Shown: positions 1,173 through 15,814, numbered from the stretch's first letter. The stretch: 64,000 nt of DNA from an uncultured Acidobacteriota bacterium (GCA_963805975.1 CAWDVR010000002.1:384001-448000); one strand, 5' to 3'. Notes: a model not told the origin generated them from the letters alone. Translations and numbers: made by a program.

Positions 1173-4127
1173 ATGAACCCCGAGGGCCACGCTCCGGGCA
1201 CCACCCGTGGCGACCGCACCGACTTCGGCGACTGGCTGCGCGGCGTGCCGAAGGCGTCGCCTGGCGGCCTCGCGCCCGGCCCCGGCATGGCCTGGGGCCG
1301 CTATCGGCTCGAGGGCCTGCTGGGCGAGGGCGGCATGGGCCGGGTTTTCGCCGCCTTCGACCCCCGTCTCGAGCGCCGCGTGGCCCTGAAGCTGCTGCGC
1401 GGCGACGACCCGGTGCTCGCCCTCCGCTTCCTGGCCGAGGCACGAGCCCAGGCGCGGGTCGAGCACGAGCACGTATGCCGGGTGTACGAGGTCGGCGAGG
1501 TCGAGGGGCACCCGTACATCGCCATGCAGCTCGTCGAGGGGCCGACGCTGCGCGAGGTGCCCCCTGGCATGTCGCTCACCGAGCGCACCGAGGTGATGCG
1601 GCGGGTGGCGGAGGCGGTCCACGCCGCGCACCGCACGGGCCTGATCCACCGCGACGTCAAGCCGGGCAACATCCTGCTCGAGGCCACCGAGGCCGGCGCC
1701 TGGCGGCCCTACGTGGCGGATTTCGGCATCGCCCGCGCGGTGGACGCGGCGGGCCTCACGCGGCCCGGCGCGGTGGTCGGAACCCTCGAGTACATGGCGC
1801 CGGAGCAGGCTTTCGCCGAGGGGACGGAGCCGGACCGCCGAGTGGACGTCTACGGCCTCGGGGCGACGCTCTACGAGCTGCTCTGCGGCCAGCCGCCGGT
1901 CTCCGGCGCGAGCGAGGGCGAGGTGCTGATGAGGCTCCTGACCGGCGAGCCGGAGCGGCTGTCGAAACGCCGGCCGGGCCTGCCCGTCGATCTCGAGACC
2001 ATCGTCATGAAGTGCCTGGAGCGGGATCCGAAGCGGCGCTACGAGTCGGCCCGGGCTCTCGCCGAGGACCTCGCCCGCTTCCTCGACGGCGAGCCCATCC
2101 TCGCCCGCCCCACCTCCTGGACCTACCGCCTGGCCAAGCGCGTGCAGAAGAACCGCGGTATCGCCGCCCTGCTCGCCGCCGCGGCCCTGGGGATCCTCGT
2201 TTCGGCGGGGCTCTGGCTGCACACGCGGTGGCAGGCAGGCAGGCAGGCGGCGCTCGCCCAGCGCTTCGGCGAAGAGGTGCAGGCGATCGAGAGCCAGTTG
2301 AAAATCGCCCAGCTCCTGCCGCTCCACGACACGGCCCCGGAGCGGGCCGCGGTGCGGCGGCGCATGGCAGCCCTCGAAGAGCAGGCGAAGCACGGCGGCA
2401 GGCCGGCGCTCGGGCCGGGCTCCTATGCCCTGGGCCGCGGTCACTTGGCGCTCGCCGAGCCGGAAGCCGCCCGCGCCGCGCTCGAACGCGCCCAGGACGC
2501 GGGCTACCGCACGCCGGACGTTTCCTACGCGCTCGGGCTGGCGCTCGGCGGCCTGTACCAGAAGGCGCTCGAGCGCGCGGACTCGCTGGCGGACCGGCGG
2601 CAGCGGGATCTCGAGCGGGCACGGGCCGAGCGCGGTCTGCGCGACCCGGCCCTCGCCTACCTGCGGGCCGCGGGCAGCGCCCGCCACGACCCGGCCTACG
2701 TCGAGGGGCTGATCGCACTCTACGACCGCCGCTTCGACGAGGCCCTGGCCAAGGCGCGCCAGGCGTTTGCCGCCGCGCCGGCGCTCTACGAGGCGCGGCA
2801 GCTCGAAGGGGAGGTGTTGATGGCCGAGGGCACGCGGCTCGCCGAACGGGGCGCCTACGACGCGGCCCTCGCGCGCTACCACGAGGCGGAGGATGCCTTC
2901 GCCGGCGCGCTCGCGATCGGCCGCAGCGACGCCATGCTGCTGCGTAGCGAGTGCCTGCGGCGCCTCAAGGTGCTGGAGATCGACATCGTGCGCGGCGGCA
3001 GGGCCGAAGGCAGCTTCGCCGCCACGCGCCAGGCTTGCGAGACCGCGCTCGCCGCCAACTCCGAGCTCGGCCCTGCCTACGACCTGCTCTCCTCCGCCCA
3101 CTGGCACTATGGCGACTTCTTGATGGACCGCGGCGGAGATCCGCGGGCGATCCTCACGCGCGCCGAGGAGCTGGCCGCCAAGGCCCTGGAGCTGTCCCCC
3201 GCCAACGCCGCAGCGGCCTCGCACGCCGGCACCGCGGCGGTGCTCGCCGCCGAGCACGAGACCGACGCCGGGCTCGATCCGCGCGCCTCCCTGGAGCGCG
3301 CCATCGCGAGCTTCGACCGTGCCCTGGCCCTCGACCCCGACCTCGTCCTGGCCTACAACGAGAAGGGCCTCGCGCACTTCGCCCGCGGGCGCTACGAGAT
3401 GCTGGCCGGGCTCGACGCGCGCGCCAGCTTCGCGCGCGCCGTGGAGGCGTACGAAGCGGCCATCGCGCGCGACCCGGAGTACGCCAACGCCATCCACAAC
3501 CTCGGCCTGGCGCTCGACAACGCCGCCGACTACGAAGCCGCCACCGGCAACGACCCGAAGCCTTTTCGGCAGCGGTCGATCGAGAGCTATCGCCGCGCCA
3601 TCGTGCTCAACCCCCACCGCGCGCTCTTCCTCTCCAACCTGGGAGGCGGCTACGTCAAGCTCGGCGACTGGGAGATGTCGCAGGGGGTTGTACCGGACGC
3701 CGCCCTGGCCGGCGCGATCGAGGCGCTGGATGCGGCGCGCGCCGCCGACCCCGGCCTGGCGATCGCGACCACCAACCTCTCGAACGCCTACCTGCTGCGG
3801 GCGGAGCACCAGCGCAAGACCGGCGGCGACCCGCGGGCGGCGATCGAGCGCTGCATCGCCTTGAACGCCGAGGTGCTCGCCCTCCAACCGGGCAACGCCC
3901 TCGCCCTCGGCACCCAGGGGCAGGCTTGGGTGTCGCGTGCCCACTACGAGCTCGACTCGGGGCTCGACGCGTCCCGCTCCATCGCGCGCGCCGAGCAGGC
4001 GCTGGCCGAGACCCTGCGTGCCAATCCGCTGTTCGAAAACGCCCTCGCGCCGACGCGGGCCGATCTCGCGGCCTTGCGGGCGCGGCAGGCGGAGCGCTCC
4101 CGGCCGGCCTCCCGTTCTACGAGATAG
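1173..4127 (+). CDS. Hanks-type Ser/Thr protein kinase with one TM helix and a C-terminal TPR-like helical region
   Basis: LGEGGMGRV, VALK, HRDVKPGN, DFGIAR, YMAPE and DVYGLG motifs; hydrophobic GIAALLAAAALGILVSAGLWL; Ala-rich TPR-like repeats. Confidence 0.92.
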   Translation: MNPEGHAPGTTRGDRTDFGDWLRGVPKASPGGLAPGPGMAWGRYRLEGLLGEGGMGRVFAAFDPRLERRVALKLLRGDDPVLALRFLAEARAQARVEHEHVCRVYEVGEVEGHPYIAMQLVEGPTLREVPPGMSLTERTEVMRRVAEAVHAAHRTGLIHRDVKPGNILLEATEAGAWRPYVADFGIARAVDAAGLTRPGAVVGTLEYMAPEQAFAEGTEPDRRVDVYGLGATLYELLCGQPPVSGASEGEVLMRLLTGEPERLSKRRPGLPVDLETIVMKCLERDPKRRYESARALAEDLARFLDGEPILARPTSWTYRLAKRVQKNRGIAALLAAAALGILVSAGLWLHTRWQAGRQAALAQRFGEEVQAIESQLKIAQLLPLHDTAPERAAVRRRMAALEEQAKHGGRPALGPGSYALGRGHLALAEPEAARAALERAQDAGYRTPDVSYALGLALGGLYQKALERADSLADRRQRDLERARAERGLRDPALAYLRAAGSARHDPAYVEGLIALYDRRFDEALAKARQAFAAAPALYEARQLEGEVLMAEGTRLAERGAYDAALARYHEAEDAFAGALAIGRSDAMLLRSECLRRLKVLEIDIVRGGRAEGSFAATRQACETALAANSELGPAYDLLSSAHWHYGDFLMDRGGDPRAILTRAEELAAKALELSPANAAAASHAGTAAVLAAEHETDAGLDPRASLERAIASFDRALALDPDLVLAYNEKGLAHFARGRYEMLAGLDARASFARAVEAYEAAIARDPEYANAIHNLGLALDNAADYEAATGNDPKPFRQRSIESYRRAIVLNPHRALFLSNLGGGYVKLGDWEMSQGVVPDAALAGAIEALDAARAADPGLAIATTNLSNAYLLRAEHQRKTGGDPRAAIERCIALNAEVLALQPGNALALGTQGQAWVSRAHYELDSGLDASRSIARAEQALAETLRANPLFENALAPTRADLAALRARQAERSRPASRSTR

Positions 4128-5310
4128 CCTGGAGCACGCCGAGGACGCGCGAGCGTGCCAGCTCCGCGGCCGGCACGGGCTTCGAGAAGTAGAAGCCCTG
4201 GGCGTAGTCGATCCCCAGCTCGCGGAGCATCTGCGCGTCCTCGGCCGTCTCCACCGCTTCCATGATGGTGGCGGTGGCGGCGCGCTGTGCCATCTCGGCC
4301 GTCGAGCGGACGATGATCTGCCGCAGCGGGTCGGCAGCCAGGTTGCGGCTGAAGGTGCCGGAGATCTTCAGGAACTCGGGGCGCAGGTCCTTGAACAGGT
4401 TGAGGTTGGAGGAGCCTTCGCCGTAGTCGTCGAGGGCGACGCGGAAGCCCCGCTCGCGCACCGCGCCGAGGGTGGCCGCGAAGGCGCGCGGGTTGACGAT
4501 GGTCTGCTGCTCGGTGAGCTCGAGCACGATGCAGGAGGTGTCGAGCGCCGAGGCGGCCACCGCCTCGAGCAGGCGCGAGGTGAACTCCGGGTTGGTCATC
4601 GACCGCGGCTGCACGTTGACGAACGCCGTGACCTCGCCACCCAGCTCCTCGACCTCGCGGAGCGCGGAACGGATGCAGATCATGTCGGCCTCGAAGAGCA
4701 GCTCTTTGCGCGCCGCGTAGCCGAGGAAGATCGACGGGTCGCCCAGGAGCGTGGTGTGCGGGCCGCGCGCCAGGCACTCGACGCCGAAGAACGAGTACGG
4801 TGCGTCGCCCTGCTCGAGCTTGATCACCGGTTGCAGCAGCGAGCGCACGGTGCCCGCGGCCAGGAACTCCTCGAGCAGCTCGACCTGCTCCACCGGACCA
4901 TCCGGTTCGCTCGCCGGATCGGCTCCGGCTTCGTCACGGGCGAGGGCGTCCCGCCGCGCGAGCAGCAGGCGCCGGAGCTCGGTCAGTCCCGCCGGTTTCT
5001 CCAGCACGCGAGCGGCACCGAGGACCCCGGCCAGCGCCCGCACCTCGTTGTCGACGTGGCCGGAAAGGATGAACACCATGGTGTCCGGGAAATGCGTGGC
5101 CACGAAGCGCACCAGCCTCATTCCCTCGAGCCCGCCGAGGCGGGAGAGCGAGAGATCGGTCACCAGAACGTCGAACGGGAACGCGGCCAGCAGCACCTCC
5201 GCGGCCTCGATCTCGCGACAGGTGGTGAGATGGATGCCCGGCGCGCGAAGACACAGCGCCAGCGTCTCCAGCACCAGTGGCTCGTCGTCAAGCAGCAGGG
5301 CTCGCAGCAC
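4117..5310 (-). CDS. Response regulator receiver + EAL domain protein (putative c-di-GMP phosphodiesterase)
   Basis: REC: LLDDE, VTDLSL, ILSG, LEKP. EAL: LQPVI, VECLAR (EAL variant), FVNV, LELTE, LDDYGEG, LKIS, EAVET, QGFYFSKP. Confidence 0.9.
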   Translation of the reverse strand: MLRALLLDDEPLVLETLALCLRAPGIHLTTCREIEAAEVLLAAFPFDVLVTDLSLSRLGGLEGMRLVRFVATHFPDTMVFILSGHVDNEVRALAGVLGAARVLEKPAGLTELRRLLLARRDALARDEAGADPASEPDGPVEQVELLEEFLAAGTVRSLLQPVIKLEQGDAPYSFFGVECLARGPHTTLLGDPSIFLGYAARKELLFEADMICIRSALREVEELGGEVTAFVNVQPRSMTNPEFTSRLLEAVAASALDTSCIVLELTEQQTIVNPRAFAATLGAVRERGFRVALDDYGEGSSNLNLFKDLRPEFLKISGTFSRNLAADPLRQIIVRSTAEMAQRAATATIMEAVETAEDAQMLRELGIDYAQGFYFSKPVPAAELARSRVLGVLQAIS

Positions 5311-5447
5311 GATGGGCGCAGTATAGCGAACGCGGTGTCGAGGCTGGAATTGTCGTGCGATTGAGCTAGCAAAAGCGTTTGCAAAGGGCGCTACCAGGAG
5401 TTAAAAAAGCCAGTTCCTCGCTGTCGGATTGAAAGCTGCCTTACGTC

Positions 5448-5477
5448 TTGACGCACGTACGACCACTCCTGTAGCTT
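5448..5477 (+). promoter_or_regulatory. Possible sigma70-type promoter for the small ORF at 5579
   Basis: TTGACG (5448-5453), 18-nt spacer, TAGCTT (5472-5477), in a relatively AT-rich divergent intergenic region. Confidence 0.3.
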
Positions 5478-5578
5478 GCCGGCCTTGGTCGCTCCGGCGC
5501 AGGTTTCTGCGCCGGTCTTCTGGCAACAATCCATTTTTTGAGAGGCGGCAGCAGAGCCTGCCGGCCGAGGGAGGCAGC

Positions 5579-5794
5579 ATGAAGGTTGGAAGTGTGAGCG
5601 GCATCACGGAGTTCCACGCGCGGTTGTTCTCGACGACGGAGCAGGACGGTCTGTTTGCCGCCCTGCGCAAGCTCGCCCAGCTCGAGAGCCCGCGGCGGTT
5701 CTCCGAGCTCGAGGAGCCCATGGACGGCTGGTACGCCTGGTACGACGACCGCGAAGAGAGCATGGCTCTCGCCCTTGCCCCCCAGCCGGTCTGA
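5579..5794 (+). CDS. 71-aa small protein with a WYAWY motif; candidate signalling-peptide precursor
   Basis: GAGGGAGG Shine-Dalgarno just upstream of ATG 5579; GC3-rich codons; MKVGSVSGITEFHARLF...PMDGWYAWYDDREESMALALAPQPV. Confidence 0.7.
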   Translation: MKVGSVSGITEFHARLFSTTEQDGLFAALRKLAQLESPRRFSELEEPMDGWYAWYDDREESMALALAPQPV

Positions 5795-5842
5795 GAAGCT
5801 CCGGCACGCCGCGGCAACAAACTCCCCCGTCAGACGTACTCC

Positions 5843-5870
5843 AGTTTCGCCACCGTAGTTTCGCCACCGT
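5843..5870. repeat. Perfect 14-bp tandem direct repeat AGTTTCGCCACCGT x2
   Basis: Copies at 5843-5856 and 5857-5870, intergenic. Confidence 0.85.
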
Positions 5871-5972
5871 GCGCCGGTGCCTTCATGGCCGCGCACGGCG
5901 GCCCCATGTCCAGAGGCCGCGTTTCCTCTGCCGGTAAGACGCCGGCGCGGCATGGACCGCGCACCATCCTTC

Positions 5973-5981
5973 TGCTATAAC
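5973..5981 (+). promoter_or_regulatory. Possible extended -10 element upstream of the prenyltransferase gene
   Basis: TGCTATAAC resembles TGnTATAAT and lies about 37 nt before ATG 6018. Confidence 0.4.
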
Positions 5982-6017
5982 GGAGATCAATCCGCGTCCC
6001 GGCCTCACCTTGAGAGC

Positions 6018-6971
6018 ATGCATCTCGCGCTGATCCAACAGCGGCTGCTTACCCTGCCGGAGGTCGCCCAGTGGGCGGACCTTCGCGCTCTCCTCGAGCG
6101 GCCGGCCCGGCAGCGGGCAACCTCCGTGTGGGAGTACCCGGCTCTCGCCTGCCAGGCGGTGGGCGGCGCGCCGGAGGCCGCCCTCCCCGCGGTGACCGCC
6201 GTGTACACCTCGCTGCTCGCCATCCATCTCGTGGACGACCTGCTCGACGACGATCCGCGCGGCCTCTATCGCCGGCTGGGCGCCGGCACCGCCGCCAACC
6301 TCGCGCTGGCGCTCCAGGCCGCCGGCCATCGCGAGCTGGATCGGGTGCCCGCCACGGCCGAGACGCGTGCCCTCCTGCACGGCAGCCTGGCGCGCATGTC
6401 TTTCGCGACCGCCTACGGCCAGAGCCTGGACAGCCACCAGGTCACGAACGAAGAGGAGTACTGGCGGGTGGTCGGCGCCAAGACGCCGCCGCTTTTCGGC
6501 GCGGCTTTTTTTCTCGGCGCGGTGCTCGGCGGCGCGGGCGCGGACCTGGCGGAGAGCCTCGAGCAGGTGGGCGGCGTCCTGGGTCGGCTGGTCCAGGTCA
6601 GCGACGACCTGGGCGATGCGATGCAGGAGCCGGCCGGCGCCGACTGGCAGCGCCCCGGTAACAATCTCGCCCTGCTCTACGCCCTGGTGAGCGACCATGA
6701 CGAGCGCGAGGCTTTCCGCCGTGCGGCAGGTGCCGCCCACGAGCCCGCCTGCCTCTCGGAGGCGCAGCAGATCCTGCTCCGCTCTGGCGCGGTCAGCTAC
6801 TGCGCCTACCGGCTGCTCGAGCTGGCCCATCAGGCGAGGAGCCTCCTCTCGCGCCTCTCACTGGCCGATCCGCTGCCTCTCTCGAGGCTCGTCGACGAGC
6901 ATCTGCGGCCGCTGTCCCAGCTTCTGCGTACCGTCGGCGCCGAGCTACCGGAACCCGTGGTCGCGAGCTAG
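6018..6971 (+). CDS. Class 1 isoprenoid synthase-fold protein, ComQ-like (candidate peptide Trp prenyltransferase)
   Basis: FARM HLVDDLLDDD, GQSLD, KT motif (GAKTPPLF) and SARM QVSDDLGD. It lacks GKRxRP and the post-FARM RRG of chain-elongating synthases. 317 aa. Confidence 0.8.
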   Translation: MHLALIQQRLLTLPEVAQWADLRALLERPARQRATSVWEYPALACQAVGGAPEAALPAVTAVYTSLLAIHLVDDLLDDDPRGLYRRLGAGTAANLALALQAAGHRELDRVPATAETRALLHGSLARMSFATAYGQSLDSHQVTNEEEYWRVVGAKTPPLFGAAFFLGAVLGGAGADLAESLEQVGGVLGRLVQVSDDLGDAMQEPAGADWQRPGNNLALLYALVSDHDEREAFRRAAGAAHEPACLSEAQQILLRSGAVSYCAYRLLELAHQARSLLSRLSLADPLPLSRLVDEHLRPLSQLLRTVGAELPEPVVAS

Positions 6972-6977
6972 CCGGCC

Positions 6978-9803
6978 ATGGTGAGCGAGCATCCGTTTGC
7001 GCTGCGCCGGGCCGATCTGATCTGGCTCGTCGCCTCGGTGCTCGCCCTCGTCCCCTGCCTCTACTACCCCTATCGCTCGGTCGTCCCCCATCTCGGCTTC
7101 ACGCTGGCTCACGACTGGTCGGTGCGCGGCACGGAGCCCTGCCCGGCCGGGGAGAGCTGCCTCCAGGTGGGAGACCGCGTGCTCTCGATCGGCAGCGTGA
7201 GCCTCGAGCAGTTCTCGGCGAGCCGCACCCTGAGCCCGTTCGGCGCCTTCGAGAAGCCGGGCACGGTCGAGGTCCGGGTGCTGCGCGACGGCCGCGAGCA
7301 GGACCTCGAGCTCAAGACCCACCCCAGCCTGGCCGGCCTGCAGCGCATCGACGCCCTGATCGTGCTCTTCCCGTTCGTCTTCTGGCTGATGGGCACGGTG
7401 GTGATCATCTTCCTGCGGCCGAGGGACGAGCGCTGGCTGGTGCTGATGCTCTTCCACTACGTGACGGCGGTGTGGTTCGCCGCCGGGCTCGCGTCGTCCC
7501 GCCAGCTCGGCGGGGCCGGCCTCGTCTTCCACCTCTTCGTCTGGTTCTTTCCGCCGCTCGCCGTCCACCTGCACCTGATCCTGCCCGCGCCCCTGGTCTG
7601 GAGCCGCCGCTGGCGGGTGCTGGCGCCGCTCTACGCGGCGTCCGTGGTCTTCGCCGCGCTCGACCTGCTGCAGCTCCTGGGCGAGCTGCGCTACCTCTAC
7701 GTGCTGTGGTTCCTGGCCGGGCTGACGCTCGCCTTCGGCCTGCTCGTGGCACGCCTCTTCGTGCCCGCCTCGCCGGCGGCGCGCACCGCCACCCGCATCA
7801 TGCTCTACGGCGTGGCCGTCGGCTTCGGCCCGGTGCTCGTGTTCCTGATCCCCGCGACCCTGGCGCCGGACCTCCTGGCGGCGCGGCCGGACCTGGCCTC
7901 GGTCTGGCCTCTGTCGCTCGCCATCTCGCTGGTCGCGATCCCCATCCTGCCGCTGTCGTACTTCTACGCCATCTACAAGCACCATCTCGGCGCGCTCGAG
8001 TTCCGGGCCAACCGTCTGCTCGGTGTCTACAGCTTCTTCTCGCTCTACATCGCCTTCTACGTGGTGGCCCTGTTCCTGGCCCTCCGGAACTGGGGAGCGG
8101 TCGACAGCCGCGCGCTGGGCGCGACCCTCGCCATCTCGCTGGTCTTCGTGTCCGTGGCGCCCTTCCTGCGCAACCGCTTCCAGGCCCTGGTGGACCGCCA
8201 CGTGTTCGGCATCCGTCACAGCCCGGAGGAGGTGGTGCGGCTGGTGGCCTCGAAGATCCCCACCGCGTTCAACCGCGCGGTCCTGGCGCAGGTGGTGGTC
8301 GAGGAGATTCTGCCCACGCTCCTCATTCGGCAGTCGGCCCTCCATCTGTTCACCGACGACGACACCGAGACCCTCTACGAGCAGGGGCTGGCGGAGGAGA
8401 CGAGACGACCTACGCCGGAGGAGCTGCGGCTGCTGCTCCACCGGGCGGGCCGCTACCTGCCGCCGGCGCAGGCCGTGGCCTCCCAGCCCTGGGCGCGGCT
8501 CGCGATCCCACTCGGCATCCAGGCCGAGGCGATCGGCGTCTGGCTCTTCGGGCGGCGCGACCCGGACGACCACTACCCGGCGGCCGACATCCAGCTCCTC
8601 TCGACCGTCGCCAACCAGATCGCGCCCATGCTCGAAAACATCCGGCTCTACGAGCGGGCGCAGCAGGAGATCGCCCAGCGGCGAGCCGCCGAGGAGGAGA
8701 TCCGGGCGAGCCGCGAGCGCTACCGCAACCTCTTCGAGGCCACGCTCGAGGGCATCGCCATCGTCAAGAACGGAGTCATCCTGGAGGTCAACCAGGCGCT
8801 GCTCGGGATCTTCGGCTACGCCCCCTACGACCTCACCGGGCGGGCGCTCTCGACGCTGCTGGCGACCGACGAGGCGACCCTCACCGCCGAGCCCAGGGAG
8901 GGCACCGGGGAGAAGCGGGACGGCAGCTCGGTGACGCTCGAGATCGCGGCCCAGAAGTACGTCTTCCAGGGCGAGGACGTGACCGTGGTGGCGGTGCGCG
9001 ACATCGAGCGCCGCAAGCGCAACGAGGAAGAGAACCGCCACCTCCAGCGCCAGCTCCTCCACTCGCAGAAGATGGAGGCCATCGGCCGGCTGTCGGCGGG
9101 GGTCGCCCACGACTTCAACAACTGCCTGCTCGCCATCTTTGGCTTCAGCGATTTCCTGCTGGCGCGCGCCGGCAACGACGAGCTCCTGCTGCGCGGCCTC
9201 TCCGGCATCCGCGAGGCGGGCGAGAAGGCCGCGGCGCTCACCAAGCAGCTCCTGGTCTTCACCCGCCAGCAGCCCATGGAGCCGCAGGTGATGAGCTTGA
9301 ACGCCGTGGTCTCCGGCGTCGAGAAGATGGTGCGTGGCGTGCTGGGCGAGAAGGTGGACCTCGTCACCCGCCTGGCCCCGGACCTGCCCGACGTGCGCAT
9401 CGACCCGGTGCAGGTCGAGCAGGTGATCCTCAACCTGGCCGTCAACGCCCACGACGCCATGCCGCGCGGCGGCCGGCTGACCGTCGAGACCGAGCCGGTG
9501 GACCTGGCGGCCGGCACCACGCCCCACCCGGACCTCGCTCCCGGCCGCTACGCCCAGCTCACGGTTGCCGACACCGGAGAGGGGATGGACTTCGACATCC
9601 AGGGCCGGGTCTTCGAGCCTTTCTTCAGCACCAAGAAGCTGGGGGAGGGAACGGGCCTGGGGCTCTCGACCGCCTACGGCATCGTGCACCAGAGCGGCGG
9701 CCACATCACCGTGGCGAGCGCCCCGGGGCGGGGCGCCACGTTCACCATCTACCTGCCGGCGGCGGGCGGCGGGCTCATCCCAGCGCCAGCCGTGGCCCGG
9801 TGA
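6978..9803 (+). CDS. Sensor histidine kinase: TM, PDZ-like loop, multiple TM helices, GAF-like, PAS, HisKA, HATPase
   Basis: PDZ-like LQVGDRVLSIG..VEVRVLRDG; about 8-9 further hydrophobic segments; H-box GVAHDFNN; N-box QVILNLAVNA; G1 DTGEGM; F EPFFSTK; G2 GTGLGL. No C-terminal REC domain. Confidence 0.92.
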   Translation: MVSEHPFALRRADLIWLVASVLALVPCLYYPYRSVVPHLGFTLAHDWSVRGTEPCPAGESCLQVGDRVLSIGSVSLEQFSASRTLSPFGAFEKPGTVEVRVLRDGREQDLELKTHPSLAGLQRIDALIVLFPFVFWLMGTVVIIFLRPRDERWLVLMLFHYVTAVWFAAGLASSRQLGGAGLVFHLFVWFFPPLAVHLHLILPAPLVWSRRWRVLAPLYAASVVFAALDLLQLLGELRYLYVLWFLAGLTLAFGLLVARLFVPASPAARTATRIMLYGVAVGFGPVLVFLIPATLAPDLLAARPDLASVWPLSLAISLVAIPILPLSYFYAIYKHHLGALEFRANRLLGVYSFFSLYIAFYVVALFLALRNWGAVDSRALGATLAISLVFVSVAPFLRNRFQALVDRHVFGIRHSPEEVVRLVASKIPTAFNRAVLAQVVVEEILPTLLIRQSALHLFTDDDTETLYEQGLAEETRRPTPEELRLLLHRAGRYLPPAQAVASQPWARLAIPLGIQAEAIGVWLFGRRDPDDHYPAADIQLLSTVANQIAPMLENIRLYERAQQEIAQRRAAEEEIRASRERYRNLFEATLEGIAIVKNGVILEVNQALLGIFGYAPYDLTGRALSTLLATDEATLTAEPREGTGEKRDGSSVTLEIAAQKYVFQGEDVTVVAVRDIERRKRNEEENRHLQRQLLHSQKMEAIGRLSAGVAHDFNNCLLAIFGFSDFLLARAGNDELLLRGLSGIREAGEKAAALTKQLLVFTRQQPMEPQVMSLNAVVSGVEKMVRGVLGEKVDLVTRLAPDLPDVRIDPVQVEQVILNLAVNAHDAMPRGGRLTVETEPVDLAAGTTPHPDLAPGRYAQLTVADTGEGMDFDIQGRVFEPFFSTKKLGEGTGLGLSTAYGIVHQSGGHITVASAPGRGATFTIYLPAAGGGLIPAPAVAR

Positions 9804-10077
9804 TCCGCTCGCTCCGGCACTCGGGGCAGCGGCTCGGCGGGTGCAGGTGACGGGCCGCGCGCTCGCGAAACACGAAGCCGCACTCGGCGCACGCCGCGGG
9901 CTCGACCGTGAGCTTCCTGCCACTGCCCCGCGCGCTCTTCTCGAGGTGCCGCAGGTCCTCCGCCAGGAGCCCCACCGGCACCGCCAGCTCCCGCCGCAGC
10001 TCCTCGAACCCCCACAAGCCCATGGCGAGCATCTCGGCAATCTGCTGCCGGCGGGTGGAGGAGTCGGAGGTGGGCAT
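9775..10077 (-). CDS. Small HTH + Zn-ribbon protein (COG3357-like putative transcriptional regulator)
   Basis: TRRQQIAEML, EDLRHLEKSA, CAECGFVF and PSRCPECRSERI (two CxxC). Confidence 0.8.
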   Translation of the reverse strand: MPTSDSSTRRQQIAEMLAMGLWGFEELRRELAVPVGLLAEDLRHLEKSARGSGRKLTVEPAACAECGFVFRERAARHLHPPSRCPECRSERITGPRLALG

Positions 10078-10100
10078 GACGTGCAGCAGGAGAAGAGTGG

Positions 10101-10514
10101 CTAAACGCTTCCCCGTTCGACCACCCATTCCACAGGTTGGCGAGTGACCGAGGCGATGAGGTCGAAATCGCGGTCGTAGTGCAGGACGGTCAGGGCAGCC
10201 TGCTCACCGGCCGCCGCAATCAGCAGATCGTTGATCGGGACTCGGTGGTGGCCCGTCTTCGCGAGCTCCCGTTGGACCGAGAGTGCCCGCTCGAAGGTGC
10301 CCTCAGTCAAGGGGACCGACCTGTAGGCGAACTTCCGCCTCTGGCGGATGGCGTCGTAGTCGGCCAGGTTTCGGGCGCTGAAGAGAACCTCCAGGTCGAT
10401 CACCGCGCAGGTCGCCACCTGGCCGGTCTCGATCAGCGGTGCCAACCGCGCTTCGACCGCCGGAATCGTCATCCGCGCCAGGGCGCTCTTGTCCAGCAGG
10501 TACCTGGCGGTCAT
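10101..10514 (-). CDS. vapC: VapC-family PIN-domain toxin
   Basis: YLLDKSAL, LEVLFSAR, DLLIAAA, VLHYDRDFD; ATGA overlap with the upstream antitoxin. Confidence 0.9.
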   Translation of the reverse strand: MTARYLLDKSALARMTIPAVEARLAPLIETGQVATCAVIDLEVLFSARNLADYDAIRQRRKFAYRSVPLTEGTFERALSVQRELAKTGHHRVPINDLLIAAAGEQAALTVLHYDRDFDLIASVTRQPVEWVVERGSV

Positions 10515-10726
10515 CGCCGCCAGGCACCAGCCATCACCTCGGGGTCCGCGAGGTCCATGCCTCGCATCTCCTTGAGCGCTTCCACCTCGGCACGCCGGGC
10601 TTCCTGCCTCACCACCGCCAGGAAGGCCTCGTTGATCGTGTCTTTGATGCTTCCCGTGGTGAGGATTCGTTGAGCCTCGGCTAGCAGGTTCTCGTCGATC
10701 TCTACACTGGTCTTGCGAATGGCCAT
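10511..10726 (-). CDS. vapB: VapB-family antitoxin
   Basis: RKTSVEIDENLLAEAQRIL..IKDTINEAF; 71 aa, coupled to the PIN gene. Confidence 0.85.
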   Translation of the reverse strand: MAIRKTSVEIDENLLAEAQRILTTGSIKDTINEAFLAVVRQEARRAEVEALKEMRGMDLADPEVMAGAWRR

Positions 10727-10822: not shown

Positions 10823-13270
10823 CTACTCGCTCTTCAACGTAACCGCCGGGTCGACTCTCGTCGCCCGGTGGGCCGGAATGAAGCAGGCGACGAAGGCCAC
10901 GGCGAGGAGGAGACCGGCCACCGCGGCGTAGGTCGCCGGGTCGGTGGGGGCGACCTCGAAGAGCACTGTCCCGATGAGCTTCCTCGCCGCGAACGCGCCG
11001 GCGAGGCCCAGGGCCAGGCCGCAGGCAACGAGCGCGAGCCCCCGCGAGATGACCAGCTTGAAAACGCCGCCGGGCCGCGAGCCGAGTGCCATGCGCACCC
11101 CCACCTCGTGCCGGCGCTCTTCGACGGAGTAGGACAGCACACCGTAGGTGCCCACCGCCGCGAGGAGCAGGGCCACGGCGCCGAAGACGGCGACCAGGAG
11201 GGTCAGCAGGCGCGGATCGGAGACCGAGTCGGCTACCGCGTTCTCGAGCGTTTGCAGGTCCGCCACCGGGAGGGTCGGGTCGAGCTTCGCCACCTCAGCG
11301 CGCGCCGCGGCGGCGAGCTGCAACGGGTCACCCTGGGTGCGCACCACCACGTTGCGCGTGCGAAGAGAGAAACCGACCAGAGCCTGGGACTGCTCAGCAG
11401 AGAGATAGATCTCGGTTCCCGCCGGCCGCTGGATACCACCCTGCTTGACGTCGGCCACCACGCCGACCACCGTGAACCAGGGCGTATCGTCGCTGAACTC
11501 CGGCTGCAGCCGCTTGCCGAGCGGGTTCTCCCCCGGCCAGAAGACCTGCGCCAGGCGCTGGTTGACTACCACCACGGGGGTCGTCGACTGCGCGTCCTGG
11601 CGCTCCAGCACGCGGCCGGAGAGCAGGCGGATCTTCATCGTCTCGAAGTATTGCTGCGAGGCGAACTGGTAGTAGTCCACGTTCTGGATCGGGCCGTCCG
11701 GCGGGCCGGGCACGCCCTCGAAATTGGTGTCGTTGGCGTCCATGTCGCGCACCGGCGGCAGGCCGCTCATCGCCGCCGCCGCTTCCACCCCCGGCAGCGC
11801 CCGCAGGTTCTCGAGCAGCCGGTCGTAGAAGGCACGGGTGGCCACGCCATCGGCGTAAGACGATTGCGGCAGCGAGAGCTGGAAGGTGAGTGCCCCCTTG
11901 GGCTCGAAACCCGGATCGACCTGCTGCAAGGTCCAGAAGCTCTTGAGCAGCAGGCCGGCGCCGATCACCAGCACGAAGGCGAGCGCCACTTCCGCCACCA
12001 CCAGCCCGGCGCGGAACAGGCGCCGGCCGCGGCCGGCGGTCGAGCGCGTGCCTGCCTTCAGGCTGACGAAAAAAGTCCGCGCCCGCGCGTGGAGGGCCGG
12101 GGCCAGGCCGAAGAGCAGGCCGGTCGCGATCGCCACCGCCAGGGTGTAGGCGAGGAGCGGCAGGTCGAGGCCGACCGAGCTCACCCGCACCACGCTGCCG
12201 GGGTTGCCGGCCAGCACGGCGTTGACGCCCCACACGGCGACCACCACGCCGAGCGCCCCGCCGGCGAGCGAGAGCAGCACGCTCTCGGTCAGGAACTGCC
12301 GCGCCAGGCGCCCGCGGCCGGCGCCGAGCGCGGTGCGCACGGCCACCTCGCGCTGGCGCGCCTCGGCGCGGGCGAGGAGCAGGTTCGCCACGTTGGCGCA
12401 GGCGATCAGCAGCACCAGGCAGACGGCTCCCGCGAGGAGCAGCATCTTCGGCCGCGCGGCGCCGACCAGGTCCTCCTTGAGCGGCTGGAGGACCAGCGGA
12501 TGGTTCTCGGGGCTCGGCACGTGGGTGTCCGGCAAGTCGTCCCGCCAGCGCCGGACCAGACCGGCCAGCTCCTCTTTCGCCTGCGCCACCGAGACTCCCG
12601 GCCGCAGGCGGCCGATCAGGTAGAGGTAATGACTGCCGCGCCCGCCGGGGTTGGCCGGGTCGAGGGCGAGCGGCACCCAGGCTTCGACCCGTGCGTCCTC
12701 GACGTCGAAGCTCGCCGGCATGATGCCGACCACCGTGCGCGCCGTGCCGTCCACCTCGACCGTGCGGCCCACGAGGCCGGGGTCGGCGGCGAAGGACCGG
12801 CGCCACAGGTTCTCGCCGAGCACCACCACCGGCGGCGCGTTCGGTAGATCCTCCTCGGCGTTGTAGGGCCGGCCGGCCACGGGCTTGGCGCCCAGCGCCG
12901 TGAAGAGGCTCGCGGAGGCGATCGCGGAGCGCACCCGCAACGGCTCCTCGCGGGCGCCGATGTTGGCGGCGCCGGTGCGGTAGGCGCCGATCTCGAGGAA
13001 GGACTTGTTCCAGCGCCGGAGCTCGTCGTACTCCGGCGGCGAGATCCAGAAGTGAGTGAACTTCATGGTCGGGAACTGGCTGAAGATCGCCACCAGGCGC
13101 TCCGGCTGCGGGTAGGGTAAGGGCCGCAGCAGCACGGCGTGGACGACGCTGGCGATGGCGGCGTTGGCGCCCACCCCGATCGCCAGGGTGAGCACGATCA
13201 GCAGCGCCACGCCCGGGCGCCGAGCCCAGTGACGGAGGGCATAACGGACGTCTTGCAGCAGGTCGTTCAT
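10823..13270 (-). CDS. ABC transporter permease, ADOP-type (duplicated MacB_PCD/FtsX)
   Basis: LQDVRYALR, VLLRPLPYPQPERLV, LLIACANVANLLLARA, EVGVRMALG, PAHRATRVDP. Confidence 0.92.
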   Translation of the reverse strand: MNDLLQDVRYALRHWARRPGVALLIVLTLAIGVGANAAIASVVHAVLLRPLPYPQPERLVAIFSQFPTMKFTHFWISPPEYDELRRWNKSFLEIGAYRTGAANIGAREEPLRVRSAIASASLFTALGAKPVAGRPYNAEEDLPNAPPVVVLGENLWRRSFAADPGLVGRTVEVDGTARTVVGIMPASFDVEDARVEAWVPLALDPANPGGRGSHYLYLIGRLRPGVSVAQAKEELAGLVRRWRDDLPDTHVPSPENHPLVLQPLKEDLVGAARPKMLLLAGAVCLVLLIACANVANLLLARAEARQREVAVRTALGAGRGRLARQFLTESVLLSLAGGALGVVVAVWGVNAVLAGNPGSVVRVSSVGLDLPLLAYTLAVAIATGLLFGLAPALHARARTFFVSLKAGTRSTAGRGRRLFRAGLVVAEVALAFVLVIGAGLLLKSFWTLQQVDPGFEPKGALTFQLSLPQSSYADGVATRAFYDRLLENLRALPGVEAAAAMSGLPPVRDMDANDTNFEGVPGPPDGPIQNVDYYQFASQQYFETMKIRLLSGRVLERQDAQSTTPVVVVNQRLAQVFWPGENPLGKRLQPEFSDDTPWFTVVGVVADVKQGGIQRPAGTEIYLSAEQSQALVGFSLRTRNVVVRTQGDPLQLAAAARAEVAKLDPTLPVADLQTLENAVADSVSDPRLLTLLVAVFGAVALLLAAVGTYGVLSYSVEERRHEVGVRMALGSRPGGVFKLVISRGLALVACGLALGLAGAFAARKLIGTVLFEVAPTDPATYAAVAGLLLAVAFVACFIPAHRATRVDPAVTLKSE

Positions 13271-13342
13271 CGGTCTCCGCTCCTGGGCGCCCACGGCGCG
13301 AGGGACTGTTTACCTCTTCAACGAATCAGGTAGTCGAAGGTT

Positions 13343-15814
13343 TCAACCCTCGCGCAGCGCCGCCAGCGGGTCCAGCCGAGCCGCGCGGCGGGCCGGCACC
13401 AGGTTGGCGACGAAGGCCACCGCGGCGAGCAGGGCCGCCGCTCCCAGGTACACCTGCGCTTCCACGGCGCCGAGGCCGAAGAAGACCTTCGACAGGGCCA
13501 TGGTGGCGCCCACCGCGGCCAGGAGGCCGATCCCCAGGCCGATGGCCACCAGCTTCAGGCCCTGGCCGAGCACCATGCGCACGAGGTCCGCGGGGCGGGC
13601 CCCCATCGCCTGCCGGATGCCGATCTCGCGCGTGCGGCGGCCCACGGCATAGGAGACCACCCCGTAGAGGCCCAGCGCCGCGAGCAGCAGGGCGAGCGCG
13701 CCGAAGCTGCCAAAGAGCACCGAGCCGAGGCGGGCCGGCGTCACCGTGTGGGCGATCGACCCCTCCATGCTCTGCGACTCCAGGATCAAGAGCTGCGGCT
13801 CGACCGCCAGCACCGCCTTGCGCAGGGTGGCGGCCAGCGTCAGGCCGTCGCCCCGGCCGCGCGCCACCAGGCTCGCCGAGGGCGTGTAGCGGCGGTCGCG
13901 CACGAAGTGGACGAAGGGCCGCGGCGGCTCCCCCACCGTGCGCACCTTGTGGTTGGCGGCGACCCCCACCACCTCGTAGAAGGGGCCCGCGGGCCCGAGG
14001 GTGGAGAAGCGCTTGCCGAGCGCCTCCTCGCCGGGCCAGAACTTCTCGGCGAAGGTCTGGTTCACCACGACTACCCGCTGGTCCTCGGCCACGATGTCGC
14101 GGCCGTAGAGGAGCGGCACGCCCAGGGTCTCGAAGTAGCCGGGGCTGACGTTGGTCACGTCGACGGAGACCCCGTCATCGTCGGGACCGGACGACTGGCC
14201 CTCGATGAACACTGCGGTCATGTGGTTGTTGAAGGTGAACGGCAGGCGCTCGGAGTAGGAAGCCGCCTCGACCTCGGGCAACGCCCGCACGCGCTCGATC
14301 AGGGTGCGGTAGAAGGCCTTGCCCTGCTCCTCGGTGTAGCGCACCGAGCCGAGGTCGAAGGTGACGAAGGCCAGCTTCTCCGGGCGGAAGCCCAAGTCGG
14401 CCGCGAGCGAGCGGCCCATGCTCCGGAGCAGCAGGCCCGCGAGCACGAGCAGGAACAGCGTCACCGCCACCTGCCCCACCACCAGCGCGTCGCGCAGCGC
14501 GAACCTGCGGCCCGCCTCGGCGGCGGCGCCCTCGGACTTGAGGCTCGCCACCAGGTTGGGCCGCGTGGCGCGGAGCGCCGGCGCCAGGCCGAAGAGCACC
14601 GCCGCCACGGCCGAGACCCCGAGCGTGAATAGGAACGCGGAAAGATCGAGCTGAAGGTCCAGCGCCAGCTTCACCGGGACCGGCGGCTGCCAGGCGCCGA
14701 GCGCCTCGTTCGCCCAGTAGGCCGCGAGCAGGGCGACCGCTCCCGCCGCCAGGGAGAGCAGCAGGCTCTCGGTCAGGAGCTGGCGCACCAGACGGCTGCG
14801 CGAGGCGCCGATCGCCAGCCTCACGCCGATCTCCTTGCGCCGCGCCGTGGCGCGCGCCAGGAGCATGTTGGCGACGTTGGCACACGCCACCAGCAGCACC
14901 AGCGCCACCACGGCCATCAGCACCGCGCCGGCCGGGCCGAGGCTCGAGTCCAGGGCGGGATGGATGCGCACTTTGTTGGTGGGGATCACGCTCACCCGGC
15001 GGCCCTCGTTGGTGGCCGGGTGCTCGCGTTCGAGGCGCGCCATCACCAGTCCGAGGTTGGCCCGCGCCTCCTCTGCCGTCACCCCGGGCTCGAGGCGGCC
15101 GGTGAGGAACATCCAGCGCCGGCCGCGCTGTTCGCGGCGGGTCTTGCCGGGCTCCGCCCCGGTCACGTCCTGCATGCCCACCGGCTCGACCTCCTCCACC
15201 ATCGCGCTCGGCACCCAGAGGTCGGGAGCGGCGCCGGCGGTCATGCCGTGGAAGCCTCGCGGAGCGACGCCCACGATGGTGAAGTCCATGCCGCGCAGGC
15301 GGAGCGCCTTGCCCACCGCGGCCGGGTCCGCGCCGTAGCGCCGGGTCCAGAAGCCGTGGGAGAGGATCACCACCGGCCGCTCCTTCTCGACCGTGTCCTC
15401 CTCCGCCAGGAAGGCGCGGCCCAGCACCGGCCGCACCCCCAGCACGTCGAAGTAGTTGGCCGTCACCACCTCGCCGAAGGCGAGCTCCGAGGCGTCGTCG
15501 CGCGACAGCGCCGCGAACATCAGGCTGTGGCCGGCCAGGCCCCGGAGCACGCCGTTGCCGGCCTGGAGGTCCAGGTAGTCGAGGTAGGAGGTGGTGGAGT
15601 AGGCGCTGCTCTGGCCGTCGTTGGTGTAGATCGATACCAGCTCGTTCGGCTTCTCGACCGGCAGCGGCCGCAGGAGCACGGAGTTGACCAGGCCGAAGAT
15701 CACCGTGTTGAGGCCGATGCCGAGCACCAGAGACGCCACGGCCGCGGCGGTGAAGCCCGGCCGATCCCGAAAGCCCCGCAGGGCATACCGCAAGTCCTTG
15801 AGCAGGGTCTCCAT
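13343..15814 (-). CDS. ABC transporter permease, ADOP-type (duplicated MacB_PCD/FtsX)
   Basis: LKDLRYALR, VLLRPLPV, LLVACANVANMLLARA, REIGIRQAMGA, PARRAARLDP. Confidence 0.92.
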   Translation of the reverse strand: METLLKDLRYALRGFRDRPGFTAAAVASLVLGIGLNTVIFGLVNSVLLRPLPVEKPNELVSIYTNDGQSSAYSTTSYLDYLDLQAGNGVLRGLAGHSLMFAALSRDDASELAFGEVVTANYFDVLGVRPVLGRAFLAEEDTVEKERPVVILSHGFWTRRYGADPAAVGKALRLRGMDFTIVGVAPRGFHGMTAGAAPDLWVPSAMVEEVEPVGMQDVTGAEPGKTRREQRGRRWMFLTGRLEPGVTAEEARANLGLVMARLEREHPATNEGRRVSVIPTNKVRIHPALDSSLGPAGAVLMAVVALVLLVACANVANMLLARATARRKEIGVRLAIGASRSRLVRQLLTESLLLSLAAGAVALLAAYWANEALGAWQPPVPVKLALDLQLDLSAFLFTLGVSAVAAVLFGLAPALRATRPNLVASLKSEGAAAEAGRRFALRDALVVGQVAVTLFLLVLAGLLLRSMGRSLAADLGFRPEKLAFVTFDLGSVRYTEEQGKAFYRTLIERVRALPEVEAASYSERLPFTFNNHMTAVFIEGQSSGPDDDGVSVDVTNVSPGYFETLGVPLLYGRDIVAEDQRVVVVNQTFAEKFWPGEEALGKRFSTLGPAGPFYEVVGVAANHKVRTVGEPPRPFVHFVRDRRYTPSASLVARGRGDGLTLAATLRKAVLAVEPQLLILESQSMEGSIAHTVTPARLGSVLFGSFGALALLLAALGLYGVVSYAVGRRTREIGIRQAMGARPADLVRMVLGQGLKLVAIGLGIGLLAAVGATMALSKVFFGLGAVEAQVYLGAAALLAAVAFVANLVPARRAARLDPLAALREG

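Follow-up and report, generated by a model that had tools for sequence, protein, structure and literature searches.

A 64,000-nucleotide stretch of an uncultured Acidobacteriota genome (GCA_963805975.1, CAWDVR010000002.1:384001-448000; the window) carries a cassette of four neighbouring genes, encoding a small precursor peptide, an enzyme with the trans-isoprenyl diphosphate synthase (trans-IDS) fold, a receptor histidine kinase and a protein with receiver (REC) and EAL domains (Table 1), which together probably form a signal circuit in which a tryptophan of the peptide would be prenylated, the product sensed by the kinase and cyclic di-GMP (c-di-GMP) regulated as the output. A first-pass annotation of the sequence had proposed an analogous, ComQXP-like peptide-signalling module in a probable Acidobacteriota genome, and linkage, motifs and receptor layout now support this reading, with relatives mostly in Thermoanaerobaculia. 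Gene calls and domain matches bore out all four genes where it had placed them, including the 317-residue isoprenoid-synthase-fold gene and the kinase with a PDZ-like loop and many transmembrane (TM) segments; its tryptophan-containing 71-residue open reading frame (ORF) was also recovered, but holds two tryptophans, W51 and W54 (WYAW), and the divergent orientation of the REC-EAL gene holds in the window but is atypical among relatives (66 of 70 upstream and co-directional). In the source genome, precursor, enzyme and sensor are each single-copy.

The precursor, enzyme and receptor genes are linked and co-distributed. Scanning the genomes of GTDB for relatives (best 80 of 96 kept) gave 78 loci, mostly from Thermoanaerobaculia and other Acidobacteriota, plus Plesiocystis pacifica and one unclassified record. 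A precursor was found at 77 of the 78 (74 by an iterated profile, with L043, L069 and L078 added by a six-frame search), and the one miss is a locus with 5 nt of sequence ahead of the enzyme; a second precursor profile was positive at 76 loci, with two copies at 57. The sensor was present at 71 loci, six of the misses having no more than 724 nt downstream and the true miss being Plesiocystis, and REC-EAL was present at 70, the eight misses comprising two incomplete and six complete loci. Where present, REC-EAL was upstream and co-directional at 66 loci, upstream and opposite at 3 and downstream at 1. The conserved neighbourhood by which the first-pass annotation had proposed to check its reading was thus found for peptide, sensor and REC-EAL alike, so that its refuting condition, an absence of such linkage, does not hold. 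Across differing flanking contexts, the only common genes of at least 90 aa were those for the enzyme, REC-EAL and kinase. Strong enzyme matches and the sensor occurred in the same 13 of 61 related genomes; more widely, the enzyme was found in 5 of 301 genomes of the phylum and, in a Myxococcota sample, only in Plesiocystis (1 of 251). These linkage and co-occurrence counts are descriptive, because the relatives are kin and not independent. Four loci (L047, L052, L056, L058) carry tandem peptide-enzyme pairs (52-58% identical), and two adjacent enzymes (76-80% identical) were seen at each of L176, L177 and L179.

The precursor start (5579, + strand) is preceded closely by GGGAGG. Among 129 trimmed homologues, the leader consensus MxIxDFxSKxxSxxExxxLFxALRxLS is followed by a variable core. 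A profile built from the leader only, without tryptophan, matched 129 of 863 small ORFs lying around the enzyme at the 78 genome loci, and WxxW was present in 126 of these 129 versus 47 of 733 other small ORFs; in a distant clade, described below, the leader-only profile matched 10 of 4273 small ORFs, all ten with WxxW (background 227 of 4273). These controls rule out an artefact or chance ORF in both clades. The second tryptophan (W2) is kept in 129 of 129 peptides and the first (W1) is replaced by Met in three; among distant-clade peptides, 6 of 68 end exactly at W2 and 22 of 68 have a tail of three residues or fewer, and four precursors contain repeated cores. Since the three exceptions retain W2, six peptides end at it and four precursors repeat the core, we infer that W54 is probably the prenylated residue and that the tail is probably dispensable. 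No Pfam family, including ComX (PF05952) and the NHLP leader, matched the window peptide or 77 homologues, and a genome-wide search for ComX (PF05952) gave no match, but its controls likewise gave none. The cultured strain Plesiocystis pacifica carries, adjoining the enzyme, a precursor with three WxxW cores (L087:7721-7990), and atypical cores were seen in a separate Acidobacteriota family (FMVYWF, L094:7675-8076) and in a close relative (WILWH, L043).

The enzyme retains the residues of both aspartate-rich motifs: D73, D74 and D77 of the first (FARM) in 172 of 172 homologues and, in the region of the second (SARM), Q193, D197 and D200 in 172 of 172 and D196 in 171 of 172. RRG and GKxxR are motifs of chain-elongating synthases, which use them to bind isopentenyl diphosphate (IPP) and diphosphate. 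RRG follows the FARM in none of the 172 homologues, and the N-terminal GKxxR is present in only two, its place being taken by W38-x-x-P41; the three ordinary synthases of the source genome have RRG (3 of 3) and GGKRxRP (2 of 3). The model (predicted local distance difference test, pLDDT, 90) has a long-type trans-IDS fold. A profile search returned 232 enzyme clusters (50% identity, E up to 1e-30), which fall into two main clades, and an ESM Atlas search returned only unnamed or AlkB-fragment clusters, of low recognition value. Database entry P0208 is a precursor-enzyme fusion, possibly a sequencing or gene-calling error; entries P0191, P0237 and P0240 include an enzyme-sensor fusion, to which the same doubt applies, and tandem double-domain enzymes.

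Modelling of the enzyme with its precursor gave a complex score of 0.84 versus 0.01 for the best of three controls; the runs shared at least 75% of contacts, with a partner pLDDT of 66-69. The score mark used is reached by 116 of 157 solved versus 2 of 215 mismatched pairs, counts that apply only roughly because our own alignments were used. In the model, leader residues 9-33 pack on enzyme residues 220-224 and 254-264, peptide residues 40-54 lie in an interface that includes enzyme residues 66-70, 156-160 and 189-199, and there is no confident contact past W54, which supports a predicted arrangement in which the leader docks on the enzyme and the tryptophan core runs along the active site.

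Hydropathy and the AlphaFold model agree on ten hydrophobic segments in the kinase, one before and nine after a β-rich loop whose weak PDB matches are nearly all PDZ domains. Pfam domains are PDZ_2 (weak, E 0.003), GAF, PAS, HisKA and HATPase_c; in NCBIfam the kinase core resembles CckA, with no equivalog cut-off reached, and the core residues of the H, N, G1, F and G2 boxes are kept in 58 of 58 homologues. Foldseek gave no match for the sensor at E 0.001 or better, the weak rows being HtrA/DegS PDZ domains and GPCR bundles, and neither the enzyme nor the sensors had a match in a plasmid collection. A 1 TM-PDZ-9 TM layout is characteristic of ComP-like kinases (PMC3353171), and ComP has 10 TM helices (PMC4008528); the modelled receptor has this ComP-type layout.

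Comparison with more distant relatives separates the sensing half of the system from its output. In the second clade, for which 80 of 154 metagenomic loci were kept, a precursor homologous to those of the first clade (hhalign 95.5%, E 1.4e-8) occurs at 61 of the 64 loci with enough upstream DNA, and a sensor at 44 of the 48 loci of at least 3 kb. Here the kinase is of HisKA_3 type in 22 of 22, a response regulator adjoins it in 46 of 47 (8 of the 10 scanned carry a LuxR domain), and an EAL domain was found in 0 of the 80; five named homologues of the kinase, among 120 matches listed, are all from Chloroflexota or Anaerolineales. In an intermediate, smaller clade a PDZ-9TM-GAF sensor is fused to HD-GYP, with a precursor at L175, L178 and L181, and this fusion is a second tie of the sensor to c-di-GMP. 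Deeper Acidobacteriota branches have a hybrid kinase and no REC-EAL. Signal and sensor half are constant and the output is exchanged, because HisKA_3/LuxR, HD-GYP, hybrid and REC-EAL variants occur across the clades; judged from these sequences, the output is a swappable module, and the midpoint-rooted tree leaves the order of change undirected. Comparative support for the suggestion of the first-pass annotation that REC-EAL had replaced a DNA-binding regulator comes from the distant clade, where the same sensor and peptide are still paired with a HisKA_3 kinase and a LuxR-type regulator, but REC-EAL is lineage-specific (7 of the 13 genomes with enzyme and sensor). At L110, L138, L148 and L155 a protein of 376-484 aa, with an HTH-like N-terminus in one, follows the Anaerolineales-type kinase.

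We propose that the leader would bind the C-terminal helices of the enzyme, that the WxxW core would enter an acceptor site at Q193/D196, and that an indole, probably that of W54, would be alkylated by a prenyl diphosphate bound at the FARM; judged from the complex model and the motifs, this step as a whole is very likely. Leader and tail would then be trimmed and the lipopeptide would leave the cytoplasm by general machinery, for which no gene was found. That the outward PDZ-like loop would read the variable peptide, with the prenyl-tryptophan entering the TM bundle and strain-specific dialects resulting, we regard as likely, and it is fairly likely that the kinase would govern how far REC-EAL is phosphorylated, acting directly in this genus and perhaps by relay in relatives with hybrid kinases. 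REC-EAL would thereby alter c-di-GMP levels.

Several findings weigh against this circuit, beginning with its output. In the REC-EAL protein, receiver residues D8, D9, D52, S83 and K105 are invariant (64-66 aligned homologues), and EAL residues E178, R182, N232, E264, E267, D294, D295, K315, E351 and Q371, which we take to be the metal- and water-binding catalytic set, are kept in 67 of 67; it is predicted to be a phosphorylation-controlled c-di-GMP phosphodiesterase. However, all 67 EAL domains have KIS instead of the usual KID. Of 58 full-length homologues of the kinase, 55 are longer hybrids (a C-terminal receiver was confirmed in one), so that direct phosphotransfer from kinase to REC-EAL is something we infer. 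In family f6, six of six sampled genomes have enzyme and sensor without a REC-EAL orthologue, and one genome has weaker REC-EAL homologues without enzyme and sensor. Prenylation and sensing could accordingly be right and REC-EAL be a co-regulated neighbour only, the kinase signalling through its own receiver, an HPt protein or an unlinked regulator; the hybrids, and the absence of REC-EAL from 6 complete loci and from 6 of the 13 genomes with enzyme and sensor, favour this alternative. It is nonetheless unlikely: REC-EAL remains with the cassette despite inversions and amid many unrelated flanking genes, no part of the cassette is more conserved, no other response regulator is conserved nearby, and the window kinase has no receiver of its own (the C-terminal extension of the 55 homologues is absent in the window's genus and in L043, and that genus has no C-terminal receiver).

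A second set of points concerns whether the signal leaves the cell. No transporter or protease is conserved nearby among genes of at least 90 aa across flanking contexts, the enzyme stop and kinase start are 6 nt apart, and the host group is diderm, all of which would suit a cell-internal circuit in which the producing cell retains the prenylated peptide in its own membrane as a readout of its growth state or prenyl-diphosphate pool. Such a private sensor would need neither a variable core nor a variable PDZ loop, and both are found. Compared with a same-genus genome, identity was 36% for the core, 59% for PDZ, 67% for the leader, 70% for the enzyme, 78% for the TM segments, 92% for the kinase core, 95% for REC and 87% for EAL, with neighbouring permeases at 83-85%. 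Diversity across 28 loci was 0.07 for REC, 0.10 for EAL, 0.14 for the kinase core, 0.19 for a flanking gene, 0.32 for the enzyme, 0.37 for TM, 0.38-0.46 for the leader, 0.52 for PDZ and 0.75 for the core, the last figure being inflated (ungapped, tryptophan excluded). Both comparisons give the order core > PDZ > leader > enzyme > kinase core/REC-EAL, and Bacillus pherotypes show the same order (Table 1 of PMC4008528). The pattern would fit signal specificity; it describes diversity, however, without testing for selection, and rapid evolution is in any case common in loops and membrane domains. In addition, one f6 genome (G058) has three sensors, two of them at loci with their own precursors (L187, L188), and one strong enzyme match, which suggests that a single enzyme may serve several peptide-receptor pairs. 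Together these points leave the cell-internal alternative improbable.

The identity of the enzyme is the third matter. Sequence and structure searches alike rank chain-elongating synthases first (Z 29.7 to polyprenyl synthases versus 25.4 to the indole prenyltransferase Ord1), Foldseek gave the same family as the structural Z-scores, and no ComQ, PalQ or StheQ chain was among the matches listed in PDB searches with the enzyme. The pseudo-SARM Asn of ComQ is absent, its position being D196, and since StheQ N215D has its activity cut by 98% (10.64898/2026.08.29.745113), this argues against membership of the ComQ family. Indole prenylation is still compatible with Asp at this position, because PalQ prenylates indole with D200/D204 kept (PMC10853753) and Ord1 does so with Q216/D219 (PMC12510300); the Q193-type Gln is no discriminator, because Gln is also usual in ordinary synthases. 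A housekeeping prenyl synthase is ruled out, as the genome has three others and the enzyme gene is patchy (13 of 61 and 5 of 301 genomes). An ordinary or divergent synthase making a non-peptide terpenoid ligand, with the small protein as a regulatory subunit, would agree with the intact DDxxD motifs and the best matches, yet is highly improbable against the loss of RRG and the N-terminal GKxxR, the leader-plus-variable-core anatomy with repeated cores in four precursors, and the core lining the active site in the complex model. At L095, L097, L098 and L100 no precursor was found adjoining the enzyme, and in Plesiocystis pacifica enzyme and precursor are present and the sensor was not found in the genome. 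The Plesiocystis case, with its three-core precursor, would fit an antagonist or other natural product that is secreted, with the receptor as a self-sensing or immunity element, but this is the least probable alternative, given the lack of linked genes for transport or additional tailoring and the linkage of a receptor of ComP-like layout at 71 of 78 loci.

Among known systems, Bacillus subtilis ComQXPA resembles the prenyl-tryptophan circuit proposed here in its PF00348 enzyme and 50-75 aa tryptophan precursor (PMC4008528), its kinase of about 10 TM with PDZ after TM1 (compared by layout alone; PMC3353171), and its lack of a linked exporter and same order of variability (PMC4008528). It differs in that the cassette enzyme has an intact second DDxxD and lacks the pseudo-SARM Asn (NDxxx), the leader is unrelated (no PF05952 match), the tryptophans form WxxW with a 17-aa tail whereas the ComX tryptophan lies within the last 5-10 residues, the gene order is X-Q-P, and a HisKA/CckA-type core with GAF and PAS stands in place of HisKA_3 and REC-EAL in place of ComA; the HisKA_3 and LuxR plan is absent in the window and present in the Anaerolineales-type relatives. 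A 2014 census found no ComQXPA outside Firmicutes (PMC4008528), and the host of the cassette is an acidobacterium. Paenibacillus alvei PalP-PalX-PalQ likewise combines a kinase, a precursor and an IDS-fold tryptophan prenyltransferase, and PalQ keeps the SARM aspartates, has Gln before them and uses leader-assisted binding; in PalX, however, the leader is of NHLP type and the tryptophan strictly C-terminal, whereas the cassette leader has no Pfam match and its tryptophans are internal (PMC10853753). StheQ/StheX of Sphaerobacter thermophilus provides ComQ-like peptide prenylation outside Firmicutes with a precursor of about 70 aa, an ordered N-terminal part and two tryptophans, but StheQ has the pseudo-SARM Asn, the two tryptophans are adjacent near the C-terminus, stheX lies downstream, and the main text of the paper describes no receptor or c-di-GMP output (10.64898/2026.08.29.745113). 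Ord1 (PDB 9V4G) shares the all-helical IDS fold, with Q216/D219 spaced like Q193/D196, but acts on free indole (PMC12510300) and is 22% identical. Chain-elongating trans-IDS enzymes share the two DDxxD motifs and the fold, but not the loss of RRG and GKxxR. The REC-EAL architecture is that of Pseudomonas aeruginosa PvrR/RocR (NF052596, E 3e-24, far below cut-off), and to our knowledge PvrR and RocR are not linked to a peptide-modifying enzyme. Notwithstanding the functional likeness, the cassette, as predicted from its sequence, works like ComQXP yet is not ComQXPA proper, and a literature search, some key papers and supplements being beyond its reach, found no description of this family or wiring.

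If the proposed circuit is correct, Thermoanaerobaculia (abundant, largely uncultured soil Acidobacteriota) and Anaerolineales would gain a peptide cell-to-cell signal with strain dialects, of a type so far characterised as a signal mainly in Firmicutes, and one receptor module would serve three different outputs, of which two are c-di-GMP phosphodiesterases. The 232 clusters would make up a sizeable and varied family of candidate peptide prenyltransferases working with a short leader of two helices. A bolder version, which we consider decidedly unlikely, is that a long-type isoprenyl synthase was independently recruited, that both tryptophans of WxxW are modified by its two intact DDxxD sites, either through double prenylation or through a prenyl staple, and that the receptor was wired twice to c-di-GMP (EAL and HD-GYP); were the double modification true, it would be new chemistry for a ribosomally synthesised and post-translationally modified peptide (RiPP), and the product would be a pheromone used across phyla by uncultured bacteria of soil and sediment.

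Table 1. Features of the cassette in the window, and loci of a related sensor fusion
Feature	Coordinates	Strand	Description
REC-EAL protein, 397 aa	4117..5310	-	PF00072 + PF00563; predicted phosphorylation-controlled c-di-GMP phosphodiesterase
Divergent intergenic region	5311..5578	.	sequence
Precursor peptide, 71 aa	5579..5794	+	helical leader ~residues 8-38, variable core W51-Y-A-W54, 17-residue tail
Trans-IDS-fold enzyme, 317 aa	6018..6971	+	PF00348 E 2e-13; predicted peptide-tryptophan prenyltransferase
Receptor histidine kinase, 941 aa	6978..9803	+	TM1, PDZ-like loop, 9 TM, GAF, PAS, HisKA, HATPase_c
Sensor-HD-GYP fusion beside enzyme	L169:997-3831; L178:7393-9873; L181:7960-10761		L175 similar

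The GTG start of REC-EAL, which lacks a Shine-Dalgarno sequence and may be leaderless, is preceded at 9 nt by a TATACT hexamer; a promoter scan of the intergenic region called no full sigma-70 promoter, and a search for a riboswitch or non-coding RNA brought no Rfam family near its gathering score. Upstream, a Ser/Thr kinase gene with TPRs (1173-4127, + strand) ends by overlapping the REC-EAL stop by 11 nt, and at the other side (9775-10726, - strand) a PF0610-like zinc-ribbon gene overlaps the kinase end and a vapBC pair follows; none of these is a conserved neighbour, and they were rejected as parts of the cassette. The MacB-like permeases at 10823-15814 were rejected as an exporter, since they adjoin the cassette only in the window's genus. 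Elsewhere, cytochrome c554-TPR and FG-GAP/ASPIC-UnbV genes recur beside the cassette, upstream of the enzyme (L083, L097, L102).

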